In this document: positions 9,985-64,000 of the stretch, piece after piece | Position numbering within the stretch: position 1 is the first letter of the stretch | How the letters are laid out: each line of letters starts with the position of its first letter | Source of the DNA: Desulfobacterales bacterium | GTDB taxonomy: Bacteria > Desulfobacterota > Desulfobacteria > Desulfobacterales > SpSt-501 | DNA: 64,000 nt | Assembly: GCA_025454255.1 (NCBI GenBank) | Contig: JALOOU010000005.1 | Coordinates: 3,045-67,044 of the forward strand | Reading direction: 5' to 3' | Translations under genes and position numbers: made by a program | The notes under the pieces: model-generated | Seen by the model: only the letters and a program-made list of their open reading frames with translations | Told to the model about the DNA's origin: nothing | Database searches by the model: none

Positions 9985-10110
9985 CCAAACGGCAGGGCTG
10001 ACGGCGTTGAAAACGGCCGCATACTGTTATATGGGTCATCGAAAAAGGCACTGTTTACCCGGTGAATCAGGAAAACCATACAAAAACGTTCTGCCTTTAG
10101 AGCACCGCCC

Positions 10111-43780: not shown

Positions 43781-45268
43781 ATGGACTTTTCAAACTACCA
43801 GGTTGAAGGCTTTTACGACGAACTTTTCCTGCCGACGGGCACCCCCCGCCTTGGGGCAAGAACGCTCATCCAGCGGCTGGAGTCCTTCGAGGCGGAGCGG
43901 ATTCTCGCCATGCAGCAGGCAGCTGAAACCGCCCTGCTCCAGATGGGGATCACCTTCAACGTCTACGGAAACGAGAGCGGCGCCGAGCGCATTTTCCCCT
44001 TCGACATCATACCGCGGATCATTCCGGCAGCCGAGTGGGCGGTCATCGAGCGCGGGCTCAAACAGCGCATCCACGCCCTGAACCTCTTCATCCAGGACAT
44101 ATACAACGAGCGCCGCATCATCCGCGACCGCGTGGTTGCCGAGGAGCTGATCGCCTCCTGCCGCGCCTACCGCAAAGAGCTGGCCGGGTTCACCCCCCCG
44201 GGGGGCATCTGGTGCCACATCACCGGCACCGACCTGATCCGGGACGCGGACGGCCGCTTTTTCGTGCTGGAGGACAACCTGCGCTGCCCCTCGGGGGTCT
44301 CCTACGTGCTGGAAAACCGCCAGGTGCTGAAGCGGACCTTCCCCAAGGTGTTCAACGACATGCCGATCCGGCCGGTGGAGGACTACCCGAACCGGCTGCT
44401 GGAGATGCTCGAGGCCATCGCGCCGCCGGACGCCGGGCGGCCCGTGGCGGCCGTCCTCACCCCCGGCGTCTTCAACTCGGCCTATTTCGAGCACTCGTTC
44501 CTGGCGCGCCAGATGGGCATCGAACTGGTGGAGGGCCGGGACCTCGTCGTTCAAGACGGCCGGCTTTACATGTGCACCACCAAGGGGCTCAAGCGCGTCG
44601 ATGTCCTCTATCGGCGCATCGACGATGATTTCCTGGATCCCACGGTCTTTCGCCCCGATTCGCTGCTCGGGGTGGCCGGGATCATGGAGGCCTACCGCAC
44701 GGGGGGCGTCTCCCTTGCCAATGCCCCGGGCACCGGGGTTGCCGACGACAAGGTCATCTACGCCTTCGTGCCCGAGATCATCCGCTACTACCTGCAGGAG
44801 GACCCGATCCTGCCGAACGTGCCCACCTACATCTGCTCGGACGACCGCCAACGGAGCTACGTTCTCGACCATCTCGACTCGCTGGTCGTCAAGAGCGCCA
44901 ACGAATCCGGCGGCTACGGCATGCTGATCGGCCCCCACGCCACGGCCGCCGAGCGCAGCAGCTTTGCCGAAAAAATCAAGGCCCGGCCCCGCGACTACAT
45001 GGCCCAGCCCACGATCCAGCTCTCGCGCGTGCCGACCATTGTCGGGGAGCGCTTCGAGGGCCGGCATGTCGATCTGCGGCCGTATGTCATCTGCGGCCGG
45101 GAGATCTACGTGATGCCCGGCGGCCTGACCCGCGTCGCCCTGCGCAAAGGCTCCCTGGTGGTCAACTCCTCCCAGGGCGGGGGCAGCAAGGACACCTGGG
45201 TGCTCGAAACCGACGATCCGTCAGGCTGGGAATCGCCCGGGACGGGCGAAATGGAGGAGGCATGCTGA
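43781..45268 (+). CDS. Circularly permuted ATP-grasp type 2 protein (DUF404/DUF407 family)
   Basis: 495 aa. The family-typical stretches are [54 protein letters not shown] and [17 protein letters not shown]. Confidence 0.85.
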
Positions 45269-46254
45269 GCCGAGTCGCCGATGCGATCTACTGGATGTGC
45301 CGGTACATCGAGCGGGCCGAAAACGTGGCCCGGTTCATCGACGTCAATCTGCACCTGAACCTCGACTTGCAGGAACCGGCCGGGCGGCAGCAGTGGGCGC
45401 CCCTGGTCACCATCACCGGCGATCAGGCCGTTTTCCGCGAACGCTACGGCGAGGCCTCCGCGGAGAACGTCATCCGCTTCCTGACCTTCGACCGGGGCTA
45501 CCCCAACTCGATCCTCGCGTGCCTGCTGTCCGCCCGTGAGAATGCGCGCATGGTCCGGGAGATCATCTCCTCGGAAATGTGGGAGCAGCTCAACCGCTCC
45601 TTCCTGATGGTGACCGCCGCGGCGCAGCACACGGAGCCGGCCGCCTTGTCGCACGAGTTTTTCGAACGGGTCAAAATGGCGAGCCACCTGTTTACCGGCC
45701 TCACGGAGGCCACCATGTCCCACGGCGAGCCTTGGCACTTCGCCCAGCTGGGCCGGCTCTTGGAGCGGGCCGACAAGACCTCCCGCATCCTCGATGTCAA
45801 ATACTTCATCCTGCTGCCCAAGATCGAGTACGTGGGGACCCCCTACGACAACATCCAGTGGGCCGCCGTTCTCAAGTCGGTCAGCGCCCTGGAGATGTAC
45901 CGCAAGCAGTACCGCCGCATCCACCCGGAGCAGGTGGCCGACTTTTTGCTGTTCGACCGCAGTTTTCCGCGAGCGGTGCGCTACTGCCTGAGCCGGGCCC
46001 AGGCCTGCCTGTGCGCGATCAGCGGTTCGCAGCCCGACGTGTTCTGCAACGAAGCCGAACGCCGGCTGGGGCGTCTGCGCTCCGAGTTGGACTATGCCGA
46101 CATCCAGGAGGTTTTCAGAATCGGCATGCACGAATACATCGACCGGCTGCAGACGCGGCTGAACGAGGTGGGGGCGGCGATCGCCGGCGCCTTCTTCGTC
46201 GCCTGCGAGCCGAGGCATCGCCCCGCTCCGGCAGGCCGGTCCCCCCTTCAGTGA
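45262..46254 (+). CDS. Alpha-E domain protein (DUF403)
   Basis: 330 aa with the N-terminus [29 protein letters not shown], the hallmark of the family. It overlaps the ATP-grasp gene by 7 nt. Confidence 0.85.
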
Positions 46255-46260
46255 GGCCGG

Positions 46261-47142
46261 TCAGGGCTCCGGCTCGACGTCGACGCCGACCGTCATTTCA
46301 TGCTTCCCGCTGCTCACCAGAACGCCCTTCAAGGGCGCGATGTCGCCGTAATCCCGACCCCACGCCAGCACGATGTGCCGCTCGCCGGGCATCTGGCCGT
46401 TGGTCGGGTCGAAATCGCACCAGCCGGCCCCCGGCAGCCAGGTCGCAAACCAGGCGTGCGATGCATCGGCGCCCCGCAGCCGCTCCCGCCCGGGCGGCGG
46501 GACCGTCTCGATGTAGCCGCTCATGTAGCGCGCGGCCAGCCCGAGCGAGCGCAGGCAGGCGATGGCCAGGTGCGCAAAGTCCTGGCAAACCCCTTTGCGC
46601 ATCCGCAGCAGGTCGCTCAAGGGCGTGGCGAGCGTGGTCGCGGCCGACACGAACTCGAAATCGCCGTAAATGCGCTGCATCAGGCTCTCCGCCGCGTCGA
46701 GCGCGGGCCGTCCCGGCGCAAAGCTCTCGAGCGCATAGTCGCGCACCGCTGCGGATGCAGCCGCCAGCGGCGAATCGAGGACGAACTGCCTGGCCTCCAG
46801 CGTCTCAGCGTCCATCCCGCTGCGCAGCGCGTCGCGCACCGCCTCCCAGTGAAGGGTCCGCGCGGCCTGCGGGACCGGCGGCGGCCCCATCACCGATACC
46901 GAGCTTGCCGCCGTGACCGTCAGTGCTTCATGCGGCTGTTCGATCGTAAAAAACACCACCCGGTTTCCGAAAAAATCGTATCGCTCGCTGTGGTCGGTCG
47001 GCGCCGGATCGATGAGCAGCTGGCAGCGGTGGCACTGCTGACGGCCGGCCAGCTCCCGCGGGAGCAGGCGCGCCTCGTTGTGGCAAAGGCTGACCGGCTC
47101 GTGGTAGAGGTAGTGGGTGCGATGGGTGATGCGGTAGTTCAT
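46261..47142 (-). CDS. Transglutaminase-family protein (Bact_transglu_N + transglutaminase core)
   Basis: 293 aa. The N-terminus is MNYRITHRTHYLYHEPVSLCHNEARLLPR. The Cys-His-Asp triad context is intact (KGVCQDFAH ... ADASHAWFATWLPGAGWCDFDPTNG). It has an ATGA overlap with the upstream gene. Confidence 0.85.
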   Translation of the reverse strand: MNYRITHRTHYLYHEPVSLCHNEARLLPRELAGRQQCHRCQLLIDPAPTDHSERYDFFGNRVVFFTIEQPHEALTVTAASSVSVMGPPPVPQAARTLHWEAVRDALRSGMDAETLEARQFVLDSPLAAASAAVRDYALESFAPGRPALDAAESLMQRIYGDFEFVSAATTLATPLSDLLRMRKGVCQDFAHLAIACLRSLGLAARYMSGYIETVPPPGRERLRGADASHAWFATWLPGAGWCDFDPTNGQMPGERHIVLAWGRDYGDIAPLKGVLVSSGKHEMTVGVDVEPEP

Positions 47143-49712
47143 CGGGAGTCCACGATCAAACGGGGCGAGGTAAGCTGGTGCGGCCGGAGGGCATGGCTGA
47201 AATAGGTCCGGTTGAGCTCATCGGAGGCCTCCGCGGATAGCCGGCTGACGGCTGCGAGCAGCTCCCCCAGGGCCGCATAGCGGCTGCCGTCCCCGCCGGC
47301 CCGACAGAGTTCATCCACATCCGCCAGCAGCAGCCGGTTGACGGCCTCGAGCACGGTTCGGTCCACCCGGTGCAGCCGCTGTTCGGCCGGCTGGCGCGGC
47401 AGCCGCGCCGCCTGGCTCTGAAGCCGCTGGAGCTGGTAGAGCAGGCTGCGGGGGTTGTAGCCGTCCAGCAGGACCTGCTCCAGCATGGTCGGCAATTGCA
47501 TGAAGTTGCGGTAGCGGTGGCGGTAGGTGATGATGTTCTCGGTCGTGGCGAGCACCGCCTCGAACACGAGATGGAAAACCGGCGTCGCGTGCACCGGAAC
47601 GAGGGTCCCCCGCAGGAACTCCGCCAGCACGATGCTGCGCTCGATGCGCCGGCCGATGTCCAGCAGCAGCCAACCCTGCTCCCGGGTCATGCTCTCGCTG
47701 GTCAAGCCCGCAAAGGCCATGAGAGAGATGATGACCTCGTCGAGCAGGCTGCGCAGCCGCCGGATGTGCACCTGCGGTCCGACCCCCAAGGATTCCGCGA
47801 ACCCCTCCAGCCGGTTGATGGACCGCCAGGTGTCGCTCGACCAGAGGTGCCTGACGGCGTGTGCCGCGCGCAGCATGAACCGCAGCGTGGCGAGCAGGTT
47901 GGCCGGCCGCTCCGGCCCGCCCACGCCCGACAGGAGCTCCCGCTCCATGCGCACCCGGAGGGAGTCTGCGCCAGGCGCTGCCGGCGCCTCGGGGGCGGCC
48001 GTCAGGCGGGCCATGGCCCGGAAGAGAATCCGAACGGTTTGGGCATCGGCCGACTCCTGCAGCAGGCTGCTTCGCTGATACCCCCTGGCAATGGTTCGCA
48101 GCAGCCGCGTGATGCCTTCCGCGCGTTCGGCGTAGCGCCCCACCCAGAAGAGATTTTCGGCGATCCGGCTCGGCAGCACCGTCGTGGCCGGGGCGCTCTC
48201 CTGGCTGCGGCCGGGCTCCTGCCAGAGGCTGATGTGCGTCTGCGGCGCTTCGGCGACAATCCACGTGTCCTTGCTGATGCCGCCGCTGCGGGCGGAGAGC
48301 TGCAGCGTGGCGTCGCTCGCAGCGCTGAGCGTCAGCCCGCCGGGGAGCACCGCGTACCCCTGCCGGCCGGCGGCGAGAAAGCAGCGCAGAACCGTCATGT
48401 GCGGCTCGAACCGGCCGCCGCTCCACGCCGGGCAGGTGGCGAAGCGCACGGCCGCCTGCCCCACGAAGGCGTGGGGACGGGCCCGCATTCGGCTCCGCAG
48501 GGCCTCCTGCGCCGCCCGGTCCAGGAGTTGGCCGTGCACGGGAGCCGATCCCGGCCCGTTGGCAAGGCTGCGGACCACCATGTTCTCCAGGTTCGCCTGC
48601 ACGTGATCGAGCGCGACCGGATCCCCGCACCACCAGGTCGGCACCGATGAGAGCCGCAGATCCTCTCCCAGCAGGTGGCGGGCGATCGCCGGCAGGTAGG
48701 CCGGCAAGCCGGGATTCTCCAAAACGGCGCTGCCCACCGGATTGGCGACGCTGACCCCTGCCCGCCGCACGGCGCTCAGGAGCCCCGCCACCCCGGTCGT
48801 CGACTCCTCCTGCAGTTCCAGCGGGTCGCAGAGGCGGTCGTCGACGCGCCGCAGCAGGATGTCGAGCGGCTTGAGGCCGTCGAGCGCCTTGAGCATGACG
48901 CGGCCCTTGCGCACGGTCAGGTCGGCCCCCTGCACCAGCGGGTACCCGAGATAGGCGGCCAGATAGGCGTGCTCGAAGTAGGTGCCGTGGCCGGGCCCGG
49001 GCGTCATCAAAGCCACCCGGGGGGCCGCGCCGGCCTGCGGTGCCGCCGCCTCCAACCCCGCCCGCAACTCCCGGAAGAACGTCGAGAGACGGCGAACCCG
49101 GCAGTCCCGGATGAGGTCCGGCAAGAGCCGGTCCATGACCATCCGGTTTTCGACCGCGTACCCGACGCCCGAGGGGGCCTCGGTCCGGTCCGCAAGCACG
49201 GCGAGCCCCAGCTCGGGGTCGCTGGTCAGGTCGGCGGCATAGAAAAACAGCCGCCGGTTGGCAGCCTCAGGCATCCCGCAGCACGGGCGGCAGAACCTGG
49301 GATCGCCGAAGAGCAGCTCGGGCGGAAGCAGGCCATCTGCGATCAGCTTGCGGGGACCGTACAGATCGGCCAGGATCAGATCGAACAGCCGGGCGCGCTG
49401 GAGCAGACCCGCCTCCAGCAGCTGCCAGGAGCGCTCGTCGTAGATCAGCGGAATGGGGTCGAGGCGCCACGGCCGCCGCGTGTCCTTGGGGTCGCCGTGG
49501 ACGTTGAAGCTCACCCCGTTCTCGGCGAGCAGCCGATCGATCTCCAGCTGCAGCTGCTGGAGCTCCGCCGTGCCCATGGCGTGGATGGCGCTGACATACG
49601 GGAGCCAGTGCGGCCGCACCTGGCCCTCGTGCCACATGGCGTCCCGGCGCCCCTCGGCCGGCCGATAGGCGAGGTCCAGGTGGGAGGCCTGCGAAGATGC
49701 CGATTCGGACAT
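47139..49712 (-). CDS. Fused circularly permuted ATP-grasp + alpha-E protein
   Basis: I prefer the ATG at 49712 (MSESASSQASHLDLAYRP; GAGGAG RBS; 857 aa) over the track start at 49940, which overlaps the upstream gene. The N-terminal half is GVSFNVHGDPKDTRRPWRLDPIPLI and SVANPVGSAVLENPGL. The C-terminal half is RIAENLFWVGRYAERAEGITRLLR (alpha-E signature). Confidence 0.85.
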   Translation of the reverse strand: MSESASSQASHLDLAYRPAEGRRDAMWHEGQVRPHWLPYVSAIHAMGTAELQQLQLEIDRLLAENGVSFNVHGDPKDTRRPWRLDPIPLIYDERSWQLLEAGLLQRARLFDLILADLYGPRKLIADGLLPPELLFGDPRFCRPCCGMPEAANRRLFFYAADLTSDPELGLAVLADRTEAPSGVGYAVENRMVMDRLLPDLIRDCRVRRLSTFFRELRAGLEAAAPQAGAAPRVALMTPGPGHGTYFEHAYLAAYLGYPLVQGADLTVRKGRVMLKALDGLKPLDILLRRVDDRLCDPLELQEESTTGVAGLLSAVRRAGVSVANPVGSAVLENPGLPAYLPAIARHLLGEDLRLSSVPTWWCGDPVALDHVQANLENMVVRSLANGPGSAPVHGQLLDRAAQEALRSRMRARPHAFVGQAAVRFATCPAWSGGRFEPHMTVLRCFLAAGRQGYAVLPGGLTLSAASDATLQLSARSGGISKDTWIVAEAPQTHISLWQEPGRSQESAPATTVLPSRIAENLFWVGRYAERAEGITRLLRTIARGYQRSSLLQESADAQTVRILFRAMARLTAAPEAPAAPGADSLRVRMERELLSGVGGPERPANLLATLRFMLRAAHAVRHLWSSDTWRSINRLEGFAESLGVGPQVHIRRLRSLLDEVIISLMAFAGLTSESMTREQGWLLLDIGRRIERSIVLAEFLRGTLVPVHATPVFHLVFEAVLATTENIITYRHRYRNFMQLPTMLEQVLLDGYNPRSLLYQLQRLQSQAARLPRQPAEQRLHRVDRTVLEAVNRLLLADVDELCRAGGDGSRYAALGELLAAVSRLSAEASDELNRTYFSHALRPHQLTSPRLIVDSR

Positions 49713-49722
49713 GCGAGGCTCC

Positions 49723-52700
49723 TCAGCCCGGCTGCCGACGCAGGTCGAGCGTGCAGGGATACTCCGGGTCCGCTCCGTCCCGCGGCGGGGCCATGGGGCC
49801 GGGGGGGCGGCCCTCGGGGACAAACCGCCCCGGTTCAGTGCGCGGCGGCGGGGGCTGGAATGGGCCGGGGGTGTGCCCGTGGTGTTGGAAGCGGCTGATC
49901 CGCCGGGACTCGGCCTCGTAGGCGTTGACCGGGAAAACATCGTAGCTGCGGCCGCCCGGGTGGCTCACGTGGTAGGTGCAGCCTCCGATCGAGCGGCCGT
50001 TCCAGGTGTCGATAATATCGAAAACGAGCGGCGAATGCACGCCGATCGTCGGGTGCAGCGCCGAGGGCGGCTGCCACGCCCGGTAGCGGACGCCGGCCAC
50101 GTGCTCGCCCCGAACGCCGGTGGGGCGCAGCGGTACGCGGCGGCCGTTGCAGGCGATGACGAAGCGCGGGTCGGTCAGGCCGCAGACCCGCACCTGCAGC
50201 CGCTCGACCGAGGAGTCGACAAACCGTGCGGCCCCCGCCCGCGTCACCTCCTCGCCGAGGACGTGCCAGGGTTCGACCGCCATTCGCAGCTCCAACTCCA
50301 GCTCGCGCACCTGCACCGACCCGTACTTAGGGAAGCGGAACTCGAAAAAGGGGTCCAGCCACGCCAGCTCGAACGGCCGGCCGCCTTGCTGGAGCTCCTC
50401 GACCACCCCGGCCAGGTCGGCGCGCACGTAGTGGGGCAGCATGAAGCGGTCGTGCAGCTCGGTCCCCCAACGGACGAGCCGGTGCCGGTAGGGCTGCGAC
50501 CAGAACCGGGCGATCAGCGCCCGCACCAGAAGCATCTGGACCAGGCTCATCCGATAGTGGGGCGGCATTTCGAAGGCGCGCAGCTCCACCAGGCCGAGCC
50601 GCCGGCCGCCCGGGTCGAGCGGGTAGAGCTTGTCGATTGAAAATTCGGCCCGGTGGGTGTTGCCGGAGGCGTCGATCAGCAGGTTGCGCAGCAGGCGGTC
50701 GGCCATCCAAAAGGCGCCCGTGTCCCCCCGCGGCAGCTCGTCGAAAGCGATCTCGAGCTCGTAGAGCTGGTCGTTGCGCGCCTCGTCCACGCGGGGGGCT
50801 TGGCTGGTGGGCCCGATGAACAGGCCCGAGAAGAGGTAGGAGAGCCCCGGGTGGTGCTGCCAGTAGGTGATCAGGCTGCGCAGCAGCTCCGGCCGCTGCA
50901 GAAAGGGGCTCGCGGCCGGGCTCGGGCCGCCGAGGGTGAGGTGGTTGCCCCCGCCGGTGCCGGAGTGCCGGCCGTCGAGCATGAACTTCTCGGTGCCGAG
51001 CCTCACCTGGCGGGCCTCCCGGTAGAGCGTCGCGACCGTTTGCGAGAGCTCGGGCCAGCTTCCGGAGGGATGCACGTTGACCTCGATCACCCCGGGGTCG
51101 GGCGAGACGCTGAGCCGGCGCAGGCGCGGGTCGTCCGGGGGCGGATAGCCTTCCAGCGCCACCGGCAGCCCGGTCTGCACGGCCGCCTGCTCGACCAGCG
51201 ACAGGAGGGCAAGCCAGGCCTCGAGGCGCTCCGCCGGCGGCAGAAACACAAACAGGCAGCCGTCGCGGGGCTCCACGCAGAGCGCCGTGCGCGCGACCCA
51301 CGCCCCGCCGGAGGCGCCCGGCGCATTCGGCGGCGCGGCGGACGGCAAGCCCGCGTTCAACCGCCCCGCCCCCCGCGGCAAGGGGGGTAAGACCGGCGGG
51401 GGGCCGACCCGCTCCACGATGTCCGCCAGACTCGGCGGCGCAGCGGTCTTTTCGTCAAGGGCGTCTGCGGGCGGCGCCGCTGCCGGCTGAGGAGCCTCGA
51501 CCCTCAGGGAGTCGAGCGGCAGCCGCAGGCCCATCGGGGAGTTGCCCGGCACCAGGTAAAGCTCCCGCCGCCTGAAGTCCCAGGCGCTGCTGCGCCAGCA
51601 GCCGGCACCCTCGTCCCACTGCAGCGGCAGCACCCAGCCGGCCGGCGCGCCCAGCCCGCGTTCGAAAACCTCCGCCAGCTTGCGGCGCTCGATCGGGCTG
51701 GAGGGGTCGAACGCGGCCGGCTCCTCGCCGACCGGCAGAAGGGCCTCCTGCCAGGCGTGGTAGAGCGGGTCCTCGTAGCCGGCGCGGATGAAGTCGGCCG
51801 GTACGCCCAGGCGGCCGGCCAAAACATCGATCAGGCGCCGGCCGTCGTTCACGGCGCCGCCACCGCCGCCGCCCGGCTCCCCCAGCAGGTCCGCTTCGCG
51901 CCACAGAGGCTCGCCGTCCGGACGCCAGAGAATGTCCACCTGCCAGCGGGGCAGAGGCTCCCCGGGATACCACTTGCCCTGGCCGAATTGGCGCACACCG
52001 CCGGGGGCGAATGCCTGCTGCAGCCGCCGGCTCAAGGCCAGCGCCAGGCGGCGCTTGCCGGGCCCGTCGGCCGCCACGTTCCACTCGGCCGAATCCATGT
52101 CGTCGATCGAAACGAAGGTCGGCTCCCCGCCCATGGTGAGCCGCACGCCGCCTTCCCTGAGCTCCGCGTCCACCCGGTGGCCCAGCGCGTCGATGGCGCG
52201 CCACTGCTCCTCCGTGTAGGGCCGGGTCACGCGCGGATCTTCACGGATGCGGCGCACCGAGTTTTCGAAGTCGAGGCGGGATTCGCACCTGCCGGTGGCG
52301 CCCGTCACTGGCGCCGCGCTCTCCGGGCTCGGCGTGCAGGCGAGCGGGATGTGGCCCTCCCCCGCGAAGAGGCCCGAGGTCGGGTCCAGCCCTAGCCAGC
52401 CGGCGCCCGGGACAAAGACTTCGGCCCAGGCGTGCAGGTCGGTGAAGTCGGCCGCGGGCCCCGACGGCCCGTCGAGCGATTTGACGTCCGGCGCCAGCTG
52501 GATCAGATAGCCGGAGACGAAGCGCGCCGCCAACCCTAAATGCCGCAGCATCTGGACCAGCAGCCAGGCCGAGTCCCGGCAGGACCCGGCAGCCGATTTG
52601 AGCGTCTGCTCGCAGCTCTGCACCCCCGGCTCCATGCGGATCATGTAGGCGACCTCCCCGCTCAGCTGGCGGTTGAGCTCGACCAGGAAATCGACGATTC

Positions 52701-53118
52701 TCCGGCGGCTTCGGGCGACCTTCCGGAGCCTCTGCCGCAGGAGTTCGCCGGCCTCCGCCGGAGCCAGGTAGGGCCGCAGCTCCTCGGCGAGCCGCGGCTC
52801 GTAGTCAAACGGGTAGAATTCCGCGCTCTCCTCGAGAAAAAAATCAAAGGGGTTTATGACGGTCAGCGTCGCGACCAGGTCGACCTCGATCGTGAGCGAC
52901 TCGGCCGGCTGCGGGAAGACCGCGCGCGCCAGGAAGTTTCCGAAGGGGTCCTGCTGCCAGTTGACGAAGTGGTTGGAGGGGGTGATTTTCAGCGAATAGG
53001 CGTCGACCGGCGTCCGCGTGTGGGGCGCCGGGCGCAGACGGAACACGTGCGGGTGGATCTGCACCGGCCGGTCGTAGTGGTAGGCGGTGCGGTGGTTCAG
53101 AGCAACCTGAATGCTCAT
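49723..53118 (-). CDS. Large transglutaminase-family protein (Bact_transglu_N + transglutaminase core + DUF2126-like C-terminal region)
   Basis: 1131 aa. The N-terminus is MSIQVALNHRTAYHYDRPVQIHPHVFRLRPAPH. The triad context is AGSCRDSAWLLVQMLRHLGLAARFVSGY ... DLHAWAEVFVPGAGWLGLDPTSG. A long C-terminal extension with a Pro/Ala-rich linker follows. Confidence 0.85.
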   Translation of the reverse strand: MSIQVALNHRTAYHYDRPVQIHPHVFRLRPAPHTRTPVDAYSLKITPSNHFVNWQQDPFGNFLARAVFPQPAESLTIEVDLVATLTVINPFDFFLEESAEFYPFDYEPRLAEELRPYLAPAEAGELLRQRLRKVARSRRRIVDFLVELNRQLSGEVAYMIRMEPGVQSCEQTLKSAAGSCRDSAWLLVQMLRHLGLAARFVSGYLIQLAPDVKSLDGPSGPAADFTDLHAWAEVFVPGAGWLGLDPTSGLFAGEGHIPLACTPSPESAAPVTGATGRCESRLDFENSVRRIREDPRVTRPYTEEQWRAIDALGHRVDAELREGGVRLTMGGEPTFVSIDDMDSAEWNVAADGPGKRRLALALSRRLQQAFAPGGVRQFGQGKWYPGEPLPRWQVDILWRPDGEPLWREADLLGEPGGGGGGAVNDGRRLIDVLAGRLGVPADFIRAGYEDPLYHAWQEALLPVGEEPAAFDPSSPIERRKLAEVFERGLGAPAGWVLPLQWDEGAGCWRSSAWDFRRRELYLVPGNSPMGLRLPLDSLRVEAPQPAAAPPADALDEKTAAPPSLADIVERVGPPPVLPPLPRGAGRLNAGLPSAAPPNAPGASGGAWVARTALCVEPRDGCLFVFLPPAERLEAWLALLSLVEQAAVQTGLPVALEGYPPPDDPRLRRLSVSPDPGVIEVNVHPSGSWPELSQTVATLYREARQVRLGTEKFMLDGRHSGTGGGNHLTLGGPSPAASPFLQRPELLRSLITYWQHHPGLSYLFSGLFIGPTSQAPRVDEARNDQLYELEIAFDELPRGDTGAFWMADRLLRNLLIDASGNTHRAEFSIDKLYPLDPGGRRLGLVELRAFEMPPHYRMSLVQMLLVRALIARFWSQPYRHRLVRWGTELHDRFMLPHYVRADLAGVVEELQQGGRPFELAWLDPFFEFRFPKYGSVQVRELELELRMAVEPWHVLGEEVTRAGAARFVDSSVERLQVRVCGLTDPRFVIACNGRRVPLRPTGVRGEHVAGVRYRAWQPPSALHPTIGVHSPLVFDIIDTWNGRSIGGCTYHVSHPGGRSYDVFPVNAYEAESRRISRFQHHGHTPGPFQPPPPRTEPGRFVPEGRPPGPMAPPRDGADPEYPCTLDLRRQPG

Positions 53119-54923: not shown

Positions 54924-56603
54924 TCAGGCCGGCCGCTTCACCCCGAATCGGCGCATCCGCTCGATCAGCGTTGTGGGTTTTATCCCCAGAAGGGCGGCCG
55001 CCCCTTTGGCTCCGTATATCCTCCAATTGGAGCGGACCAGGGCTGCCAGCATGTTGCTCTTTCGAATGGCGCTGAGCTCGGCATCGGTCAAGATCGACGC
55101 CTCCGCAACGGCATCGGCCGCGGGCCGGCCCCGATCCGGCGGCGTGACTTCGGCCCCGGTCCGGGGAAGATCCAACCGCAGGCGTCCGTGCGGTGAAAGA
55201 ATCAGGGCGCGTTCGAGAATGTTCTGAAGCTCCCGCACATTGCCGGGCCAGCTGTGGGCCCTGAGGTCCATCAAATTGGCCTCGGTAAACCGGGGGGCCG
55301 GCCGGCTCAACCGCCGGGAGAACACCTCGATGAAGTGCGCCGCCAAAAGAGGGATGTCCTCTTTGCGCGCGCGCAGCGGCATCACCTCGATCGGGAACAC
55401 GTTCAGCCGGTAATAGAGGTCCTCCCGAAACCGGCCGTTCTTGATCTCCTCCACCAGGTTCTTGTTCGTGGCCGCGATGAGCCGCACGTCCACCTTGCGC
55501 GTGCGGCCCTCGCCCACGCGTTCGAACTCCCCTTCCTGGAGCACCCGCAGGAGCTTGCCCTGCAGGCCGGGCGGTATTTCGCCCACTTCATCCAAAAAAA
55601 GCGTGCCGCCGTCGGCCGCCTCGAAGCGGCCCATGCGGTCGCTGGTGGCCCCCGTGAAGGAGCCTTTGACGTGGCCGAAAAATTCGCTCTCGTAGAGCTC
55701 CTTGGCGATAGTGGCGCAGTTGACCTTGATCAACGGGCGGTCGCGGCGCGTGCTCCGGGCGTGGATCTCGCGGGCGATCAGCTCCTTGCCGGTGCCGGAC
55801 TCCCCCAGGATGAGCACATTCGCGCCGGTCGGGGCCACCAGCTCGATGCGCGAGAGGACCGACTTGAGCGACGGGCTCTCGCCGATGATGCTGCCGTAGG
55901 CATGCACCCCGGCAAGCTCCTCCTTCAGGTAGATGTTCTCGGCGTGCAGCCGCTCCTGGAGCTTGCTGATCTCCGCCGTGCGCCGGGCGACCTCCAGCTC
56001 CAGCTCGTCGCGGGACCTCTGCAGGGCCGACTTCTGGAGGTCGCATTCGGATTGCAGATGCTCGCATGCGCCCCGGAGCTCCTCCAGCGCCTGCGCATTT
56101 CGCAAAGCCGCCGCCAGACGCGGCGCCGCGGCCTCAAGGAACAGGCGAAGCCCCGCCGCAATCCCATCGACCCGTTTGGAGCCGACGATCAGGGTCCCCA
56201 CCCTGCGACCCGCCGACGAGAGCGGGATCAGCGCGATGGAGCGGATCTCCCGTGGGACCCGGCCGAAGAACCCGCCCCTGCGCCGGGTCTCTTCGGTCAG
56301 CCGCCGGCAGTAAAAGGTTTTTCCGCCCGGGATGAGGGCCGCCGCCTCGGCCGGGGCGTCGGCGGCCGGCAGATCGAAGGAGGCAATCCCGCTCTCCGAG
56401 CGCACCAGCATCCGGAGCGGTTGGCCCCCGGCTGCCTCCAGCACCAGGGAGACATGGGCGTGCTTGAGAGACTGCTCGAAATGGCGAAGCGCCCCCTCTG
56501 CCGCGGCCGCGACCTCATCGCGGGTGATGGCGCCATCGAGCCTTTTGAGCTCCCTTAGGGTCTTTTGAAAGCTGATCGGCTTCATTGCGGTTCGAACCCT
56601 CAA
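54924..56603 (-). CDS. Sigma-54-dependent transcriptional activator (GAF sensor + AAA+ + Fis-type HTH)
   Basis: 559 aa. The N-terminal region is GAF-like, followed by a coiled coil. Then come [18 protein letters not shown] (Walker A), [15 protein letters not shown] (GAFTGA variant), [13 protein letters not shown] (Walker B) and the C-terminal [24 protein letters not shown]. Confidence 0.9.
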
Positions 56604-56912
56604 CGCCGTAGAGCCGGATGGCTGGATGGCTGCAGGAGGCCGGCGCCGCGCCTCACCCCTTGGTCGCTGCAGTCCCGCCGTGGCGGCAATCGCCTCCCGA
56701 GACGCAATTCGCGCGCCACGATCTTGGGTTTTTTACAACCTCGTTCGTGCCGGGAACATTTTTGCGAGCCCATCGGTGTTGAGACTGAAAAATAATCAAC
56801 TAAATGAGATTTACAAACAAAAATTTGAGACTCTCAATATTCTGAGGGCCAGGGTTCCACCGACACGAGCCGTATTGGCTGAAAAATTGAAATCTTGCGC
56901 TCCTGAACGGAA

Positions 56913-56928
56913 TGGCATGGCATTTGAT
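56913..56928 (+). promoter_or_regulatory. Imperfect sigma-54-like -24/-12 element upstream of the OsmC gene
   Basis: The sequence is TGGCATGGCATTTGAT. The GG is correctly spaced from TTGA, but the -12 reads GA instead of the conserved GC. It lies about 80 nt upstream of the ATG at 57010 and is divergent from the sigma-54 activator gene. Confidence 0.25.
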
Positions 56929-57009
56929 ACATAATGTGGGCGAGCATCGCGGCGCAACGGCGGCCGCCCGATGCCCAGCGGCCGACTCTATAGACGGAGG
57001 CAAGGACTC

Positions 57010-57588
57010 ATGAAACCCGCAACAGTCCAAAAACCGACCACCGTGAACGGGGTTGATGTCGACGAGCTGCATCAAACCGTGGAATCCGTGAAACAAAACA
57101 CCTCGATTGCCAAATTCCGATTCCGGGCCGACAACACCTGGATCGACGGCGGCCACAACCGGACATCCATCCGCAACTTTTACGGAGCCGGGGCGGAGGA
57201 CACCTCGCGCAAAACGCCTTTCGTTTTGGATGCCGATGAGCCGAAAGTGCTCCTGGGCACCGACCGGGGGGCGAATCCGGTCGAGTATGTGCTGACGGCC
57301 CTGGCCGGGTGCCTGACCACCTCGTTGATTTACCACGCCGCCGCCCGCGGCATCGCCATCGAGGAGGTGGAGTCGCATCTGGAGGGGGAGCTGGACCTGA
57401 GAGGGTTTCTGGGGATCTCCGATGAGGTCCGCAACGGCTACGACAACATCCGGGTGAGCTTCAAAATCAAGGCGGATGCGCCCGAGGCCCAGCTGCGCGA
57501 ATTGGTGGAGTTGGCCCAGAAGCGCTCCCCCGTTTTCGACATCGTCTCCCACCCGGTCCCGGTCACCGTGGAGCTTAAAAGTTCCTGA
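57010..57588 (+). CDS. OsmC/Ohr-family peroxiredoxin-like protein
   Basis: I prefer the ATG at 57010 (GGAGG 9 nt upstream; 192 aa). Matching stretches are VNGVDVDELHQTVESVKQN, ANPVEYVLTALAGCLTTSLIYHAA (conserved Cys) and LAQKRSPVFDIV. Confidence 0.85.
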   Translation: MKPATVQKPTTVNGVDVDELHQTVESVKQNTSIAKFRFRADNTWIDGGHNRTSIRNFYGAGAEDTSRKTPFVLDADEPKVLLGTDRGANPVEYVLTALAGCLTTSLIYHAAARGIAIEEVESHLEGELDLRGFLGISDEVRNGYDNIRVSFKIKADAPEAQLRELVELAQKRSPVFDIVSHPVPVTVELKSS

Positions 57589-57621
57589 GGCATCCCGGCC
57601 GGACAGGAGAGCGGCCCTTCC

Positions 57622-57957
57622 ATGGAGAAGATCCCGGAAAGACGACGGCACGAGCGCTTCGCCTGCGGTTCGACTCTGGAGTGGTCCTATTTCAACCAGG
57701 CGGAGGTCCACCATGCCCGGATGTGCAACTTCAGCCACGCCGGAATAGGCTTCGAGAGCCCGAAAAAACTTCTGCCCGGCGCCACGATAGTGGTGCGGCT
57801 GGAGGGTTATCGGGTCGAATGCACGGCGCAGTGCCGGGATCAAGGCGACTGCCCCTGGCCGCGTTCGATCGCGGTGGGAGAGGTCAAATGGTGCCAATAT
57901 GCGCACAGCGGGGCGCCCTCGTTTGAATCCGGGCTGAGATTTCACCTGCCGGTGTGA
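57622..57957 (+). CDS. Stand-alone PilZ-domain protein (candidate c-di-GMP receptor)
   Basis: 111 aa with RRRHERF (RxxxR) near the N-terminus and NFSHAGIGF (D/NxSxxG) 30 residues later. Confidence 0.6.
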   Translation: MEKIPERRRHERFACGSTLEWSYFNQAEVHHARMCNFSHAGIGFESPKKLLPGATIVVRLEGYRVECTAQCRDQGDCPWPRSIAVGEVKWCQYAHSGAPSFESGLRFHLPV

Positions 57958-57974
57958 GCCGTGAAGGAGGCGAA

Positions 57975-58151
57975 ATGGACAGCACTGACCGAAAAAGGAA
58001 AAAGGACTGCTGTGCGCATGAGCATAAAAGACTGGCGTTGGAGCTTGAAACCTGCGACCGGCTCGCCGCGGCCCCAGCCAAGTGGCACCGTTGCGCCCGC
58101 CTCATCTCACGCCGCAGCAGCCGGCGGGCCAGGCAATGCATGCAGAACTGA
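57975..58151 (+). CDS. Small basic Cys-containing protein (58 aa), unknown function
   Basis: AAGGAGG (57963-57969) lies 5 nt before the ATG at 57975. The product is MDSTDRKRKKDCCAHEHKRLALELETCDRLAAAPAKWHRCARLISRRSSRRARQCMQN. Third-position GC is high, consistent with coding. The track lists it from 57954. Confidence 0.4.
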   Translation: MDSTDRKRKKDCCAHEHKRLALELETCDRLAAAPAKWHRCARLISRRSSRRARQCMQN

Positions 58152-58246
58152 CCCCCTGGAAAGGGTCTGGAATCAAAGAACGACCGATTCCAACCCCAGA
58201 CGCGGCAACGATGATCCGATTAAAGTTGGACCATACGGAGCGCAAG

Positions 58247-59689
58247 ATGAATACTCAACAATTCAAAGCTGATGGCCGGAGTGCAAAGCCCTTTTCCGGG
58301 GAGGGGCTCGCCTCTTTGCGAAACCGGATTCGCGGCCGCATCCTCACCGCAGGGGACGAGGCTTATGACTCGGAGCGCAGGGTATGGAACGGCCTGATCG
58401 ACCGAAAACCCGGAGCCATCGTGCAGTGCCAGGATGCCGCGGATGTGATGGCCGCGGTCGCCTTTGCCGCGGAACGCGGCATCGCCATTTCGGTTCGCGG
58501 CGGCGGGCACAATGTGGCCGGCTCCTGTATGGTTGAAAACGGCTTCCTGATCGACCTTTCTTCCATGCGAGGAGTCCGCGTCGAGCCCGGAAAGCGAATT
58601 GCGGTGGCGGAGGGCGGGGCCCGGCTCGGGGACCTGGATCGCGCCGCCCAGGCCTACGGGTTGGCGGCCCCCGTCGGGGTTGTCTCCGCCACCGGCGTCG
58701 CCGGCCTCACGCTCCACGGCGGGGTCGGCTGGCTGCTTCGCAAACACGGGCTTGCCATCGACAACCTTCTATCCGCGGAGATCGTCACGGCCGACGGTCG
58801 CTTGAGGCGTGCCGACCCGACCGAAAATTCGGACCTATTTTGGGCCATTCGCGGCGGCGGCGGCAATTTTGGGGCCGTCACCTCATTTACCTTCAAAGTC
58901 CACCCGGTTGGCCCTGAGGTGTGGCTTTCTGCACCCATCTATCCGCTCGATCGGGCTCAAGAGGTGCTGGCGGCTTTCCGGGACTTCATGGAAGCGGCCC
59001 CAGACGAGTTGATGGGGCTTGCGGTTTTCTGGAGTGCGCCCGAGGCCCCCCAGGTCCCCAAGGAGCTCCATGGGTCGCCTGTTTTGATCCTGCTAACCTG
59101 CTACACCGGCCCCTTTGCCGAGGGCGAAGCGGTCATCGCCCCGCTGCGCCGCATCGGCACGCCCATCGCCGACTTGGGCGGCCCCATGCGTTTTGTGGAT
59201 GTGCAGACGTTTTTGGACCAAGATTACCCGGATGGGAAGTTTTATTACTGGAAGTCGATCTACCTCGACAGACTCGATGCCGAGGCCATCCAAGCGCTTT
59301 TCGATCACACCGCATCTCGGCCCTCGCCGCTGTCATCCATCGATGTCTGGACCCTGGGCAGGGCCATGCGCCGGGTGAAGAGCACGGATACAGCGTTCTA
59401 CAAAAGAGATGCCCCCTACATGATCGGGATCGAGGCGAACTGGGACAAACACGAAGACACTGAGGCCAACATCGAGTGGGCCCGCCGGGTTTTCGAGGAG
59501 ATGAAAAAGTTCTCGCACGGGGGGAATTATCTGAATTTTCCGGGGTTTTTCGAAGAGCAGGAGAGCCTTCTGCTTGGCGCATACGGCGAAAACTTGAAGC
59601 GCCTCAAATCGATCAAGGCCGAATACGACCCCGCGAATCTGTTTCTCGGGGCAATCAATATCGCGCCGGGACCCAGCGGATTGACCTGA
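58247..59689 (+). CDS. FAD-linked oxidase (FAD_binding_4 + berberine-bridge-enzyme-like C-terminus)
   Basis: I prefer the ATG at 58247 (ACGGAG RBS; 480 aa) over the track start at 58082. Matching stretches are YDSERRVWNGLIDRKPGAIVQCQDAADVMAAVAFAAERGIAISVRGGGHNVAG and LIDLSSMRGVRVEP. The C-terminal YGENLKRLKSIKAEYDPANLF is the BBE-type tail. Confidence 0.85.
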   Translation: MNTQQFKADGRSAKPFSGEGLASLRNRIRGRILTAGDEAYDSERRVWNGLIDRKPGAIVQCQDAADVMAAVAFAAERGIAISVRGGGHNVAGSCMVENGFLIDLSSMRGVRVEPGKRIAVAEGGARLGDLDRAAQAYGLAAPVGVVSATGVAGLTLHGGVGWLLRKHGLAIDNLLSAEIVTADGRLRRADPTENSDLFWAIRGGGGNFGAVTSFTFKVHPVGPEVWLSAPIYPLDRAQEVLAAFRDFMEAAPDELMGLAVFWSAPEAPQVPKELHGSPVLILLTCYTGPFAEGEAVIAPLRRIGTPIADLGGPMRFVDVQTFLDQDYPDGKFYYWKSIYLDRLDAEAIQALFDHTASRPSPLSSIDVWTLGRAMRRVKSTDTAFYKRDAPYMIGIEANWDKHEDTEANIEWARRVFEEMKKFSHGGNYLNFPGFFEEQESLLLGAYGENLKRLKSIKAEYDPANLFLGAINIAPGPSGLT

Positions 59690-59740
59690 AGTTGAGGCTG
59701 GCCGCCCGGTCGATTATAGAACGCGAAATATGGAGGCGCC

Positions 59741-59860
59741 ATGAAATCCATTGATGGTTCGGATGAAACCAAAGGCGGCGAGCCTGAGATCGGCTCGGAT
59801 AGCGATGGGTGTTGCTGCTGCTGTTGTTGCGAGACGGATGAGGAGTGCCTGGTCGAATAG
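59741..59860 (+). CDS. Acidic 39-aa peptide with a run of seven consecutive cysteines
   Basis: Not in the track (<60 aa). TGGAGG (59731-59736) lies 4 nt before the ATG at 59741. The product is MKSIDGSDETKGGEPEIGSDSDGCCCCCCCETDEECLVE, ending at TAG 59858-59860. It starts 51 nt after the FAD-oxidase stop on the same strand. Confidence 0.45.
   Translation: MKSIDGSDETKGGEPEIGSDSDGCCCCCCCETDEECLVE
59810..59830 (+). repeat. (TGY)7 trinucleotide tract encoding the Cys7 run
   Basis: The tract tgt tgc tgc tgc tgt tgt tgc was read directly. On the opposite strand it produces the poly-Gln stretch seen in the spurious ORF 59527-59880. Confidence 0.9.
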
Positions 59861-59973
59861 CCGCCGGCACCGGAGAGCATGACGTTAATTCAACCTACCG
59901 GATGGATTCGACCCACGCCCTTTTTCCGGCGCCCCTCTGATCGAGGAAACGGACAAGGGAGAGCGGGTCATCC

Positions 59974-60147
59974 ATGGCGAGGGCTGACATCATGGAAAAG
60001 AGCCATACCAGCGCAGGCAACTGCGCGGAAAAATGCGGGCATGTGATCGCCGACTGCATAAAGGACGGCAGGTCCGAAGACCAGTGCCGCGTCTCCTACA
60101 AACAGTGCGTGTCGGAGTGTGTCTTCACCACTTATCCCTATTCGTGA
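59974..60147 (+). CDS. Small six-cysteine protein (57 aa) with symmetric Cys spacing
   Basis: Not in the track. AAGGGAGAG lies about 10 nt upstream of the ATG at 59974. The product is MARADIMEKSHTSAGNCAEKCGHVIADCIKDGRSEDQCRVSYKQCVSECVFTTYPYS, with Cys spacing C-x3-C-x6-C-x9-C-x6-C-x3-C. Third-position GC is high. The competing minus-strand ORF 59968-60312 has no recognisable features. Confidence 0.45.
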   Translation: MARADIMEKSHTSAGNCAEKCGHVIADCIKDGRSEDQCRVSYKQCVSECVFTTYPYS

Positions 60148-60162
60148 CAACGCGCACCCGAA

Positions 60163-60184
60163 GGCCGCAGCGCAGGCTGCGGCC
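60163..60184 (+). terminator. GC-rich hairpin after the last gene of the OsmC...Cys6 string (possible terminator)
   Basis: The perfect 9-bp stem is GGCCGCAGC (60163-60171), the loop is GCAG, and the other arm is GCTGCGGCC (60176-60184). It lies 16 nt after the stop at 60147. No U-tract follows, so intrinsic terminator function is uncertain. Confidence 0.3.
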
Positions 60185-60357
60185 CGCTTCCAAAAATCAA
60201 CGCCTCCTGTCCAGGCCATGATTTTTTTCCAATTGGTTATTCTGCAAACGACCCGGTATCGGCCGCCCCGGTTCGGGGCCATCGCGGGCCTTTGCCGCAT
60301 GGGTCCCGCCAATGGAGTTGCGGGGAAAGGGATGGCCCGGCCCGCGGGGCATGCGGC

Positions 60358-60747
60358 CTAACGCCTCTTTTTGAAGCGATTCGGGTTGACGGTGATTCGT
60401 TTCAGGAAGGAGAGCCCGACGACCATGTGGCCGTTGAAGGGCCCCTCTTGGAGTTCGGTGATGTGCTCGACCCTCGACAGATAGTGGCCGGATGGCTCTT
60501 TGAAGCCCCGCGGCGGCACCACCCTGGCCCTGAGTTCCTGCCCCACCTCGATTTTTTCCAACAGATTGGAATCGGCCCGCACCACGATGCCCGCGCCTTC
60601 GCCGGACAGGTCCCTCGCCTTCAACTGGTAAAGGGGGCCGCCGGGCAGGCTGATTGCCACCATGGGGTGGGTCAGCTCCCTGGGCCGTGCCCTGGCTCTT
60701 CGGTTTTGCGGCTGAACTGGGGGAAAAAAATCGACCGGGGATTTCAT
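60358..60747 (-). CDS. Stand-alone PilZ-domain protein
   Basis: I prefer the ATG at 60747 (MKSPVDFFPPVQPQNRRARARPRE; 129 aa). It has an RxxxR motif (RRARAR) followed by DLSGEGAGI (DxSxxG). Confidence 0.55.
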   Translation of the reverse strand: MKSPVDFFPPVQPQNRRARARPRELTHPMVAISLPGGPLYQLKARDLSGEGAGIVVRADSNLLEKIEVGQELRARVVPPRGFKEPSGHYLSRVEHITELQEGPFNGHMVVGLSFLKRITVNPNRFKKRR

Positions 60748-60832: not shown

Positions 60833-61072
60833 CTACTCCTCGTTTTCGAGCGGGGTTTCACGATCCCGGCAGTTCTGGCAAAATTTCCGCGGCACCCCCC
60901 TGCCGATCCATTTCATCTTCATGACGTGCACCCTGCCGCACCCGGGGCAGACGCACTCCACCTTCGATTTGGAAAACTGCGCCGCCCCGGCCTCTTCATC
61001 GAGCTCCTGGTCGATGTCTTCCAAGGAACGACCCTTCTGATCCGCGAAAATCTCCGACCCCCGTGCTTTCAT
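60833..61072 (-). CDS. Small zinc-ribbon protein (79 aa)
   Basis: I prefer the ATG at 61072 (GAGGGGG RBS). The product is MKARGSEIFADQKGRSLEDIDQELDEEAGAAQFSKSKVECVCPGCGRVHVMKMKWIGRGVPRKFCQNCRDRETPLENEE. The CPGC...CQNC pair forms a four-Cys knuckle. It is immediately upstream of the PilZ gene on the same strand. Confidence 0.5.
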   Translation of the reverse strand: MKARGSEIFADQKGRSLEDIDQELDEEAGAAQFSKSKVECVCPGCGRVHVMKMKWIGRGVPRKFCQNCRDRETPLENEE

Positions 61073-63181: not shown

Positions 63182-64000
63182 TCACTCGCTCTCGAACCCC
63201 TGGCTCTTGAACTTCAGCACGCGGCAATTTTCGGTCACGGCCCGCACGACGTTGTCGGGGGCGCCGGTCTTGACCTCGGCCTCGATTTCGAGACTGACCC
63301 TCACCTCGGCGCCCACGAGGCCGGCCAGGTGGGAAATGACCTCCTCTGCGATGCGGCCGGCGTCGCGCCCCACGCGCGCCGGGTCGAGATCGACGCTGCC
63401 GTGGAAGCGCGTGAGCTTCGGCGGCGGCGCGGGCCCCGCACCGGGCGGCGGATCGGGACCGGGAGAGGGACCAGGTCCGCCGCTGGGGGTCGTGTGCCCG
63501 GGCGGAGCCACCGTCGGGCTCGGCGGCGTTTCGGCATCCATCTGCCGGCGCGCCACCTCCGGTTTGACCAGCAGGCCCGCCGAGTCCGCGTCGAGGTGAC
63601 CGATGCTCCAGCCCCCGCGCAGCCCCCGGTAGCGCCCCTCGGCCTCGTCGAAGCTCTCCGCGTAGGCGAAGGCGTCCTTTTCCCAGGTGATCAGCGCCAG
63701 GCCGTCGCAGATCGCATCGAGCAGGACCTTCGGCTCCGAAAGCCGCGGCAGGTAGAGATAGCGGGCGAAATCGTCCACCAGGACCTTGATCGGCACGTGG
63801 TTGCCGCGCCAGAGCGGGACTTTGTTCAGGTACTCCGATCGGAGAACGGATGCGCCGAGGCTCGGGATCAACAGGTCGTCGCTTCTCAGCTTCCTGCTCG
63901 CCCGCACCGCAAGGGGGTTCTGGCCCGTCAGCCGGTGGGCCTCCCATTTCACGGCCGCCTTCGGGTCCGGCTGCACAGGGACCAGGAGCCACTGGTAGGC
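63182..64000 (-). CDS. C-terminal ~270 aa of a large DUF499-type (BrxC/PglY-like) ATPase; gene continues beyond the window end
   Basis: The frame is open to nt 64000 (the track GTG at 63976 is internal). A Pro-rich linker (PPSPTVAPPGHTTPSGGPGPSPGPDPPPGAGPAPPP) is followed by the tail RFHGSVDLDPARVGRDAGRIAEEVISHLAGLVGAEVRVSLEIEAEVKTGAPDNVVRAVTENCRVLKFKSQGFESE. From memory, that tail is the conserved C-terminus of DUF499 defence-associated ATPases. Confidence 0.55.
   Translation of the reverse strand, partial: AYQWLLVPVQPDPKAAVKWEAHRLTGQNPLAVRASRKLRSDDLLIPSLGASVLRSEYLNKVPLWRGNHVPIKVLVDDFARYLYLPRLSEPKVLLDAICDGLALITWEKDAFAYAESFDEAEGRYRGLRGGWSIGHLDADSAGLLVKPEVARRQMDAETPPSPTVAPPGHTTPSGGPGPSPGPDPPPGAGPAPPPKLTRFHGSVDLDPARVGRDAGRIAEEVISHLAGLVGAEVRVSLEIEAEVKTGAPDNVVRAVTENCRVLKFKSQGFESE

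Follow-up and report, generated by a model that had tools for sequence, protein, structure and literature searches.

A conserved gene for an acidic seven-cysteine peptide in a candidate sigma54-type operon of uncultured Desulfobacterales

The window analyzed here, a 64,000-nucleotide stretch of Desulfobacterales DNA, encodes a 39-aa microprotein with seven consecutive cysteines, MKSIDGSDETKGGEPEIGSDSDGCCCCCCCETDEECLVE, at positions 59741-59860 of the forward strand (39 codons and a stop). We refer to it as Cys7. Across homologous loci its cysteines and C-terminal tail are under purifying selection, the length of the run is fixed and the reading frame is coding, and we put the probability that Cys7 is a coding gene with a functional peptide product at about 0.9. 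Protein-level selection has kept the exact run of seven, an eighth cysteine and an acidic tail across ~50% divergence, which argues that what functions is the peptide itself. Homopolymeric runs of cysteine that are conserved are, to our knowledge, very rare in proteins; in bacteria the only ones studied belong to regulatory leader ORFs, in which the peptide product is thought to be irrelevant. Were Cys7 to bind a metal, a metal-sulfur cluster or persulfide, it would provide a minimal poly-thiol ligand that is genetically encoded, with relevance to metallobiochemistry, the stress physiology of anaerobes and peptide-based metal capture.

The gene is preceded by a Shine-Dalgarno sequence, TGGAGG (59731-59736), and a 4-nt spacer (CGCC) before the ATG; a longer reading is ruled out by a TAG in the same frame, 24 nt 5' of this ATG. 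The stop of an FAD oxidase gene lies at 59689, leaving a gap of 51 nt. Codons 24-30 form the (TGY)7 tract (59810-59830; TGT TGC TGC TGC TGT TGT TGC), and they are followed by the C-terminal tail ETDEECLVE, which contains the eighth cysteine (59831-59857). The initial annotation had the ORF, its translation, the ribosome binding site, the intergenic gap and the position of the tract correct in every detail. The peptide is 21% cysteine (8 of 39 residues), has no Phe, Trp, Tyr or His and carries a net charge of about -11; neither a signal peptide nor a hydrophobic segment was found in its sequence. The tract occurs once in the window, against 0.01 occurrences expected from shuffles, and cysteine makes up 1.3% of codons in the window's genes, giving a probability of ~7e-14 per position for seven in succession, so that the run is far above chance expectation.

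Homologues were sought through protein clusters and a word-index search, with HMMER against the full set of 1.84 billion representative proteins, and by synteny walking and one DNA-pattern scan. These yielded ten distinct proteins of 39-44 aa from Desulfobacterales metagenome-assembled genomes (MAGs) and metagenomes. The HMMER scan returned only seven matches, five of them members of the Cys7 family, and the scan of JGI metagenome DNA for the pattern C5+-[ED]x[ED]xEC-L added just one locus. Gene calls for the identical ORF exist on seven public contigs, which come from NCBI metagenome assemblies, JGI metagenomes and Logan. Among the members of its 90% cluster, P0002 is named "hypothetical protein" at the source, and the window's own sequence is unnamed. 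Searches of Cys7, Cys6 and Cys5 (the latter two are neighboring small ORFs described below) against Pfam, NCBIfam and PDB sequences gave nothing significant, and Cys7 had no match to Pfam at E = 10 or to NCBIfam at E = 0.1. Relatives of the adjoining PilZ gene come from Desulfobacterales and Desulfobacteraceae MAGs. The Cys7 family is tiny, its members coming from a few uncultured Desulfobacterales, and this narrow distribution in uncultured organisms limits its interest.

The layout proposed in the initial annotation, an acidic N-terminus followed by a Cys7 block and one further cysteine, is shared by all ten homologues. Each has a seven-position run, all cysteine in nine and CCCCSCC in the tenth, and each has the eighth cysteine six residues past the run within a tail of the form [ED][TS][DE][EA]ECL[VAI]E. 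The N-terminal 17 residues drift to ~50% identity while retaining their acidity (net charge -10.6 to -12.6). From eight DNA alleles, Nei-Gojobori counting gave a pN/pS of 0.41 for the whole ORF, 0.64 for the N-terminus, 0.18 for the tail and 0.03 for the cysteine run, where pS was 0.52 and TGT/TGC switches were many. Synonymous changes in the tail (ACG/ACA, GTC/GTA/GTG, TGC/TGT and GAG/GAA) indicate that constraint acts on the amino acids rather than on the RNA. The Shine-Dalgarno sequence and start are invariant, GGAGGC-N3-ATG preceding Cys7 in all homologous loci read, and in three loci (L020, L027 and L033) the oxidase stop and the Cys7 start share an ATGA, which suggests translational coupling. 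Together the homologues, the invariant translation signals and the pN/pS values support the claim that Cys7 is a genuine small gene, protein-coding and with a good ribosome binding site.

The opposite strand was considered as well, since a poly-Gln ORF runs antisense to the tract. In an antisense frame that shares third codon positions with Cys7, the block is open in 8/8 loci with a pN/pS of 0.38, and in L029 a gene caller overlooked Cys7 and chose an antisense ORF instead. The similarity of the sense and antisense pN/pS values follows from the coincidence of third positions. The antisense open stretch, however, varies from 57 to 366 aa between loci, its first start codon shifts by locus and is missing upstream of the poly-Gln in L020 and L027, and a second antisense frame contains stops; the sense ORF has a fixed Shine-Dalgarno sequence, start and stop region inside a co-directional operon. 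Inconsistent in start and extent, the antisense frame was rejected as a shadow ORF, and it is highly improbable that the real gene lies there or that Cys7 is a chance product of high-GC DNA.

It had also been proposed that the (TGY)7 tract is prone to slippage, a contingency repeat that varies the number of cysteines between strains. On paper the tract is indeed of the trinucleotide-repeat type, but exactly seven positions are found in nine DNA alleles and ten protein variants, down to ~50% identity, and the single change seen, the one that produced CCCCSCC, is a point substitution of TGT to AGT. The tract is interrupted by its mixture of TGT and TGC, the longest pure (TGC) run being 3-4 units, and Tandem Repeats Finder detected no array in it at a score of 30. 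TGT accounts for 44% of cysteine codons in the runs vs 7% in the window's genes. This composition looks like the result of selection for an interrupted, stable repeat, the opposite of a contingency locus, and we give the slippage proposal next to no credence.

Cys7 is the fifth and next-to-last gene of an operon whose members are all co-directional on the forward strand: an OsmC-like protein (57010-57588, Pfam OsmC), a Cys-rich PilZ-domain protein (57622-57957), a basic 58-aa ORF with five cysteines (Cys5, 57975-58151), an EncM-like FAD-linked oxidase with FAD_binding_4 and BBE domains (58247-59689; PDB EncM, E = 1.5e-107), Cys7, and a six-cysteine mini-protein (Cys6, 59992-60147), with the Cys5 ORF and the oxidase being optional. 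The OsmC-like protein scores 78.9 bits against NCBIfam NF041052, "OsmC-related (seleno)protein", under the 95-bit cut-off. The PilZ protein, identified by alignment and by weak precomputed Pfam PilZ matches, keeps the RxxxR (RRRxxR) and NxSxxG c-di-GMP motifs and has four invariant cysteines (C67, C71, C77 and C91) in a C-x3-C-x5-CPWP...WC cluster, which suggests a metal or Fe-S site within the PilZ domain. The Cys5 ORF, MDSTDRKRKKDCCAHEHKRL...CMQN, is conserved, with five invariant cysteines (CC...C...C...C) and a charge of +8.7, and may pair electrostatically with the acidic Cys7. It is called as a gene in JGI loci and uncalled in NCBI-derived loci; it travels with the oxidase, yet it persists without the oxidase in L017 and L023. 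An untranslated spacer of 131 nt and poorly conserved sequence (59861-59991) separates Cys7 from Cys6, and a GC-rich stem-loop with a 9-bp stem (60163-60184; -22.7 kcal/mol, z = -2.8) stands at the end of the operon, with an equivalent hairpin following Cys6 in L008, L016, L018, L019 and L020. The locus can be described as an operon of overlooked Cys-rich microproteins (Cys5, Cys7 and Cys6) that gene callers have handled inconsistently.

Upstream of the operon, ~80-95 nt before the OsmC start and ~2.8 kb before Cys7, lies a sigma54-type promoter, TGGCATGGCATTTGAT (56913-56928). The motif TGGCAYN5TTTGA was found by regular expression at approximately -60 to -124 in 8/10 related loci; L020 was missed because the final A of the element is G, and L017 is without the element. 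The -12 element is unusual, TTGA against the consensus TTGC (TGGCAYN5TTTGAT), and the label "sigma54-type" accordingly reflects conservation of the element and a neighboring activator rather than an exact consensus match. That activator is a divergently transcribed sigma54 enhancer-binding protein (54924-56603, reverse strand; Pfam Sigma54_activat, 2.3e-71) that carries a GAF-like sensor at its N-terminus; in L029 the orthologue matches GAF_2 weakly. Two palindromic sites of the TTGAGACTCTCAA type (56803-56837) are candidate enhancers for this activator, and palindromes of this type are conserved upstream in the window and in L008, L016, L019, L020, L021, L022, L023 and L026.

Several other features of the neighborhood were noted. 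A two-gene cassette on the reverse strand, consisting of a 101-aa protein with a weak PilZ match (60358-60663) and a 79-aa protein with a zinc-ribbon-like CxC/CxxC pattern (60833-61072), is found downstream of Cys6 in the window; in L008-L010 and L016 it lies between the activator and a spermidine-synthase-like gene, and in L007 it is present in duplicate. The cassette appears mobile within this locus. At 63182-64000 on the reverse strand, and continuing beyond the window (L001:13442-18533), are a 1112-aa HEPN_Swt1 and DUF499 protein and an AAA_15/AAA_21 ATPase, a probable defense island unrelated to Cys7. A cluster of circularly permuted ATP-grasp, alpha-E, transglutaminase and DUF2126-type genes occupies 43781-53118. 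According to Pfam labels, the DUF2126/transglutaminase gene recurs at the edges of L001-L003 and L005, and in other loci it is unlinked to the Cys operon.

The initial annotation had raised a possible coupling of Cys7 to the adjacent flavoenzyme, and comparison among loci speaks against this. L016, L018 and L026 lack both the oxidase and the Cys5 ORF, the PilZ gene being directly followed by Cys7, and in L017 only a C-terminal remnant of the oxidase is left; in all four the Cys7 gene is intact, indicating that Cys7 is independent of the flavoenzyme. In L017 the remnant lies at 9800-10000, upstream of Cys7, and upstream of the PilZ gene there is an apparent internally deleted OsmC gene, which suggests ongoing decay of the enzymatic members of the operon while the small Cys-rich genes persist. 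The same four loci weigh against the idea of a RiPP-type precursor, in which the flavoenzyme or another maturase would modify the Cys-rich core of Cys7. In favor of this idea, Cys7 does have a variable N-terminal "leader" and a conserved C-terminal "core", and the EncM-like oxidase lies directly 5' in the window, with the ATGA overlap in some loci. No radical-SAM, YcaO, Lan-type, protease or export gene, however, is conserved near the Cys7 loci, and Cys7 matches no RiPP family in Pfam or NCBIfam. We accordingly consider a RiPP precursor improbable, and this part of the initial annotation was abandoned.

The gene that follows Cys7, Cys6, encodes a 51-aa mini-protein with the spacing CX3C-X6-C-X9-C-X7-CX3C; its start is fixed by a conserved GAGGG-N8-ATG (GAGGG at 59979-59983 in the window), and its six cysteines are invariant in nine homologues. 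An AlphaFold2 model predicts a two-helix hairpin (pLDDT 84) with the six cysteines on the facing sides of the helices. There was no significant sequence match to the PDB, and a Foldseek search with the model gave no match at E <= 0.001. With Cys6 as a single query, the word-index protein search recovered only Cys6 itself, and a profile was required to find relatives. Cys6 follows Cys7 in every locus for which DNA downstream of Cys7 is at hand, and Cys6-like genes also exist without Cys7, including 46-aa forms in L023 and L034. The L034 gene is at 3769-3909. Cys6-like proteins of 46 aa with the same cysteine spacing are found in unrelated contexts lacking Cys7, among them aldehyde dehydrogenase, LarA-like and TctABC genes, which indicates that Cys6 hairpins form a larger family than Cys7.

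In two loci, L019 (7840-8011) and L021 (5015-5100), the Cys7 gene and the spacer are precisely deleted, placing Cys6 behind Cys7's own Shine-Dalgarno sequence (atggaggcgccATGAAAGAG...); in L021 the Cys6 gene is truncated as well. Absence of the run from orthologous loci had been named in advance as evidence against the peptide. Such absence is real in these two loci, and the clean deletions show that Cys7 is dispensable in some lineages; they do not show that it is without function. Taken with the presence of Cys6 after Cys7 wherever this can be seen, and of Cys6 alone elsewhere, the deletions indicate that Cys7 is accessory to Cys6.

The position of Cys7 immediately 5' of Cys6 and the enrichment of a rare cysteine codon in its run are also compatible with a cis-regulatory role, in which Cys7 would be a Cys-sensing upstream ORF and ribosome pausing at scarce Cys-tRNA would alter the expression of Cys6. 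There is a documented precedent in the mycobacterial "Cys ribulon" (Ms5788A / Rv0815A), leaderless small ORFs (sORFs) with up to eight C-terminal cysteine codons that sense Cys-tRNA (Canestrari et al., bioRxiv 10.1101/834739). In Ms5788A, eight consecutive cysteine codons are separated by a 97-nt spacer from the regulated gene, and the RNA of the tract pairs with the Shine-Dalgarno sequence of that gene until a stalled ribosome releases it (bioRxiv 10.1101/834739). This was the only relevant paper found in a literature search on consecutive-cysteine or polycysteine proteins and on sigma54/OsmC operons in sulfate reducers. Consistent with regulation of this kind, no Cys7 lacking Cys6 directly downstream has been found, Cys6 does occur alone, the identity of the cysteine codons is the most conserved feature of Cys7, and the run is enriched in the rare TGT codon.

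An Ms5788A-type mechanism was evaluated in seven loci with minimum free energy (MFE) folds, constrained partition functions and comparison of duplexes against shuffles. Blocking the tract in the window raised the predicted accessibility of the Cys6 Shine-Dalgarno sequence from 0.33 to 0.53, but the effect was slight in L016 and absent in 5/7 loci, the MFE partners of the tract varied by locus, and the tract:SD duplex energies were no better than those of shuffles in any of the seven. Folding and duplex analyses thus gave no consistent support for such an attenuator. Among loci the spacer is 56-135 nt long and is without a terminator or consistent structure, and no Rfam family was found in 56500-60500, so a transcription attenuator was rejected also. 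The tract is not C-terminal but is followed by 9-14 conserved codons, with the eighth cysteine under protein-level selection, and the ORF is neither leaderless nor first in its transcript. One tRNA reads both cysteine codons, and the enrichment of TGT is better explained as repeat interruption; the downstream gene, moreover, encodes a mini-protein without a family match and is not a recognizable cysteine-biosynthesis gene. On this evidence we regard a cis-acting role for Cys7, perhaps through an unconventional form of ribosome stalling, as unlikely.

We return to Cys7 as a peptide acting in trans, and infer that it is translated in vivo, that its chemistry involves metals or redox reactions and that Cys6 is its partner. 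That Cys7 acts in trans in a metal or redox role seems to us about an even proposition. Cys7 would be expressed under the control of sigma54 and the GAF-containing activator, as the next-to-last gene of a thiol- or stress-type operon, and translated as a cytoplasmic, disordered, very acidic microprotein whose functional core is the invariant C7 block plus one more cysteine in the conserved acidic tail. It could then serve as a multidentate thiol ligand, either binding soft metals or metal-sulfur clusters in the manner of metallothioneins and phytochelatins, or acting as a sacrificial thiol/persulfide buffer, and it would probably partner the Cys6 hairpin. This reading of its chemistry draws on the composition of Cys7 and on its neighbors, as the other core proteins of the operon are all Cys-rich too. 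An AlphaFold2 model of the peptide (pLDDT 54) is without secondary structure or fold, as expected for an apo metal- or thiol-binding peptide. The surroundings of the Cys7 loci include no conserved metal transporter or metal-responsive regulator, and since consecutive cysteines cannot all chelate one ion together, the chemistry is speculative. Of the roles initially suggested, metal or thiol chemistry stands as the most reasonable reading, and the link to the oxidase or to RiPP maturation falls away.

A more specific and rather doubtful possibility is that Cys7 represents a new class among microproteins, one with a homopolymeric thiol run, and that Cys7, Cys6 and the c-di-GMP-type PilZ protein with its Cys cluster form a sigma54-controlled module for capturing or storing soft metals, or metal-sulfide or persulfide clusters, in anaerobic sulfate reducers. 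In such a module the strip of seven cysteines would be a linear surface for binding or nucleating clusters, its length set by selection.

Among known systems, Cys7 resembles both the polycysteine sORFs and metallothionein-like peptides, and it does not show the defining features of the former that were tested. Like the mycobacterial sORFs it is a very short ORF with 7-8 homopolymeric cysteine codons, followed by ~100 nt of untranslated spacer and then a further gene of its operon; in both, the cysteine codons are the most conserved part, and some members keep non-Cys residues too. Consecutive cysteine codons are present, whereas a leaderless first position, a C-terminal tract and conserved tract-SD pairing are not. 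The mycobacterial sORFs start leaderless at the transcription start, whereas Cys7 is Shine-Dalgarno-led and fifth in a sigma54 operon; their tract is C-terminal, whereas that of Cys7 is internal and succeeded by a conserved nine-residue tail. They precede a sulfur- or cysteine-metabolism gene, whereas Cys7 precedes Cys6, an uncharacterized mini-protein without a family match, and they occur in Actinobacteria, whereas Cys7 belongs to Desulfobacterota.

The predicted Cys6 alpha-hairpin, with cysteines at i, i+4 and i+11 on facing helices, recalls Csp1/Csp3 and the twin-CX3C/CX9C hairpins. Csp1 and Csp3 are copper storage proteins, helical bundles lined with cysteines. Cys6 differs from all of these in being only 51 aa long and in lacking a significant PDB sequence or fold match.

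Known metallothioneins have CxC, CxxC and CC(C) patterns and no C7 homopolymer, and Cys7 departs from them in its homopolymeric run, in having no Pfam metallothionein match and in its lack of a metal-resistance context; the Pfam and NCBIfam searches placed it in no described metallothionein family. In its general character, on the other hand, Cys7 does correspond to metallothioneins, micro-metallothioneins (MymT, SmtA) and phytochelatins: it is small and high in cysteine, the window peptide contains no aromatic residues, and it is predicted to have no stable independent fold. Metallothioneins likewise have no stable fold in the absence of metal, and the acidic residues of Cys7 are interleaved with its thiols, as they are in phytochelatin, (gamma-Glu-Cys)n.
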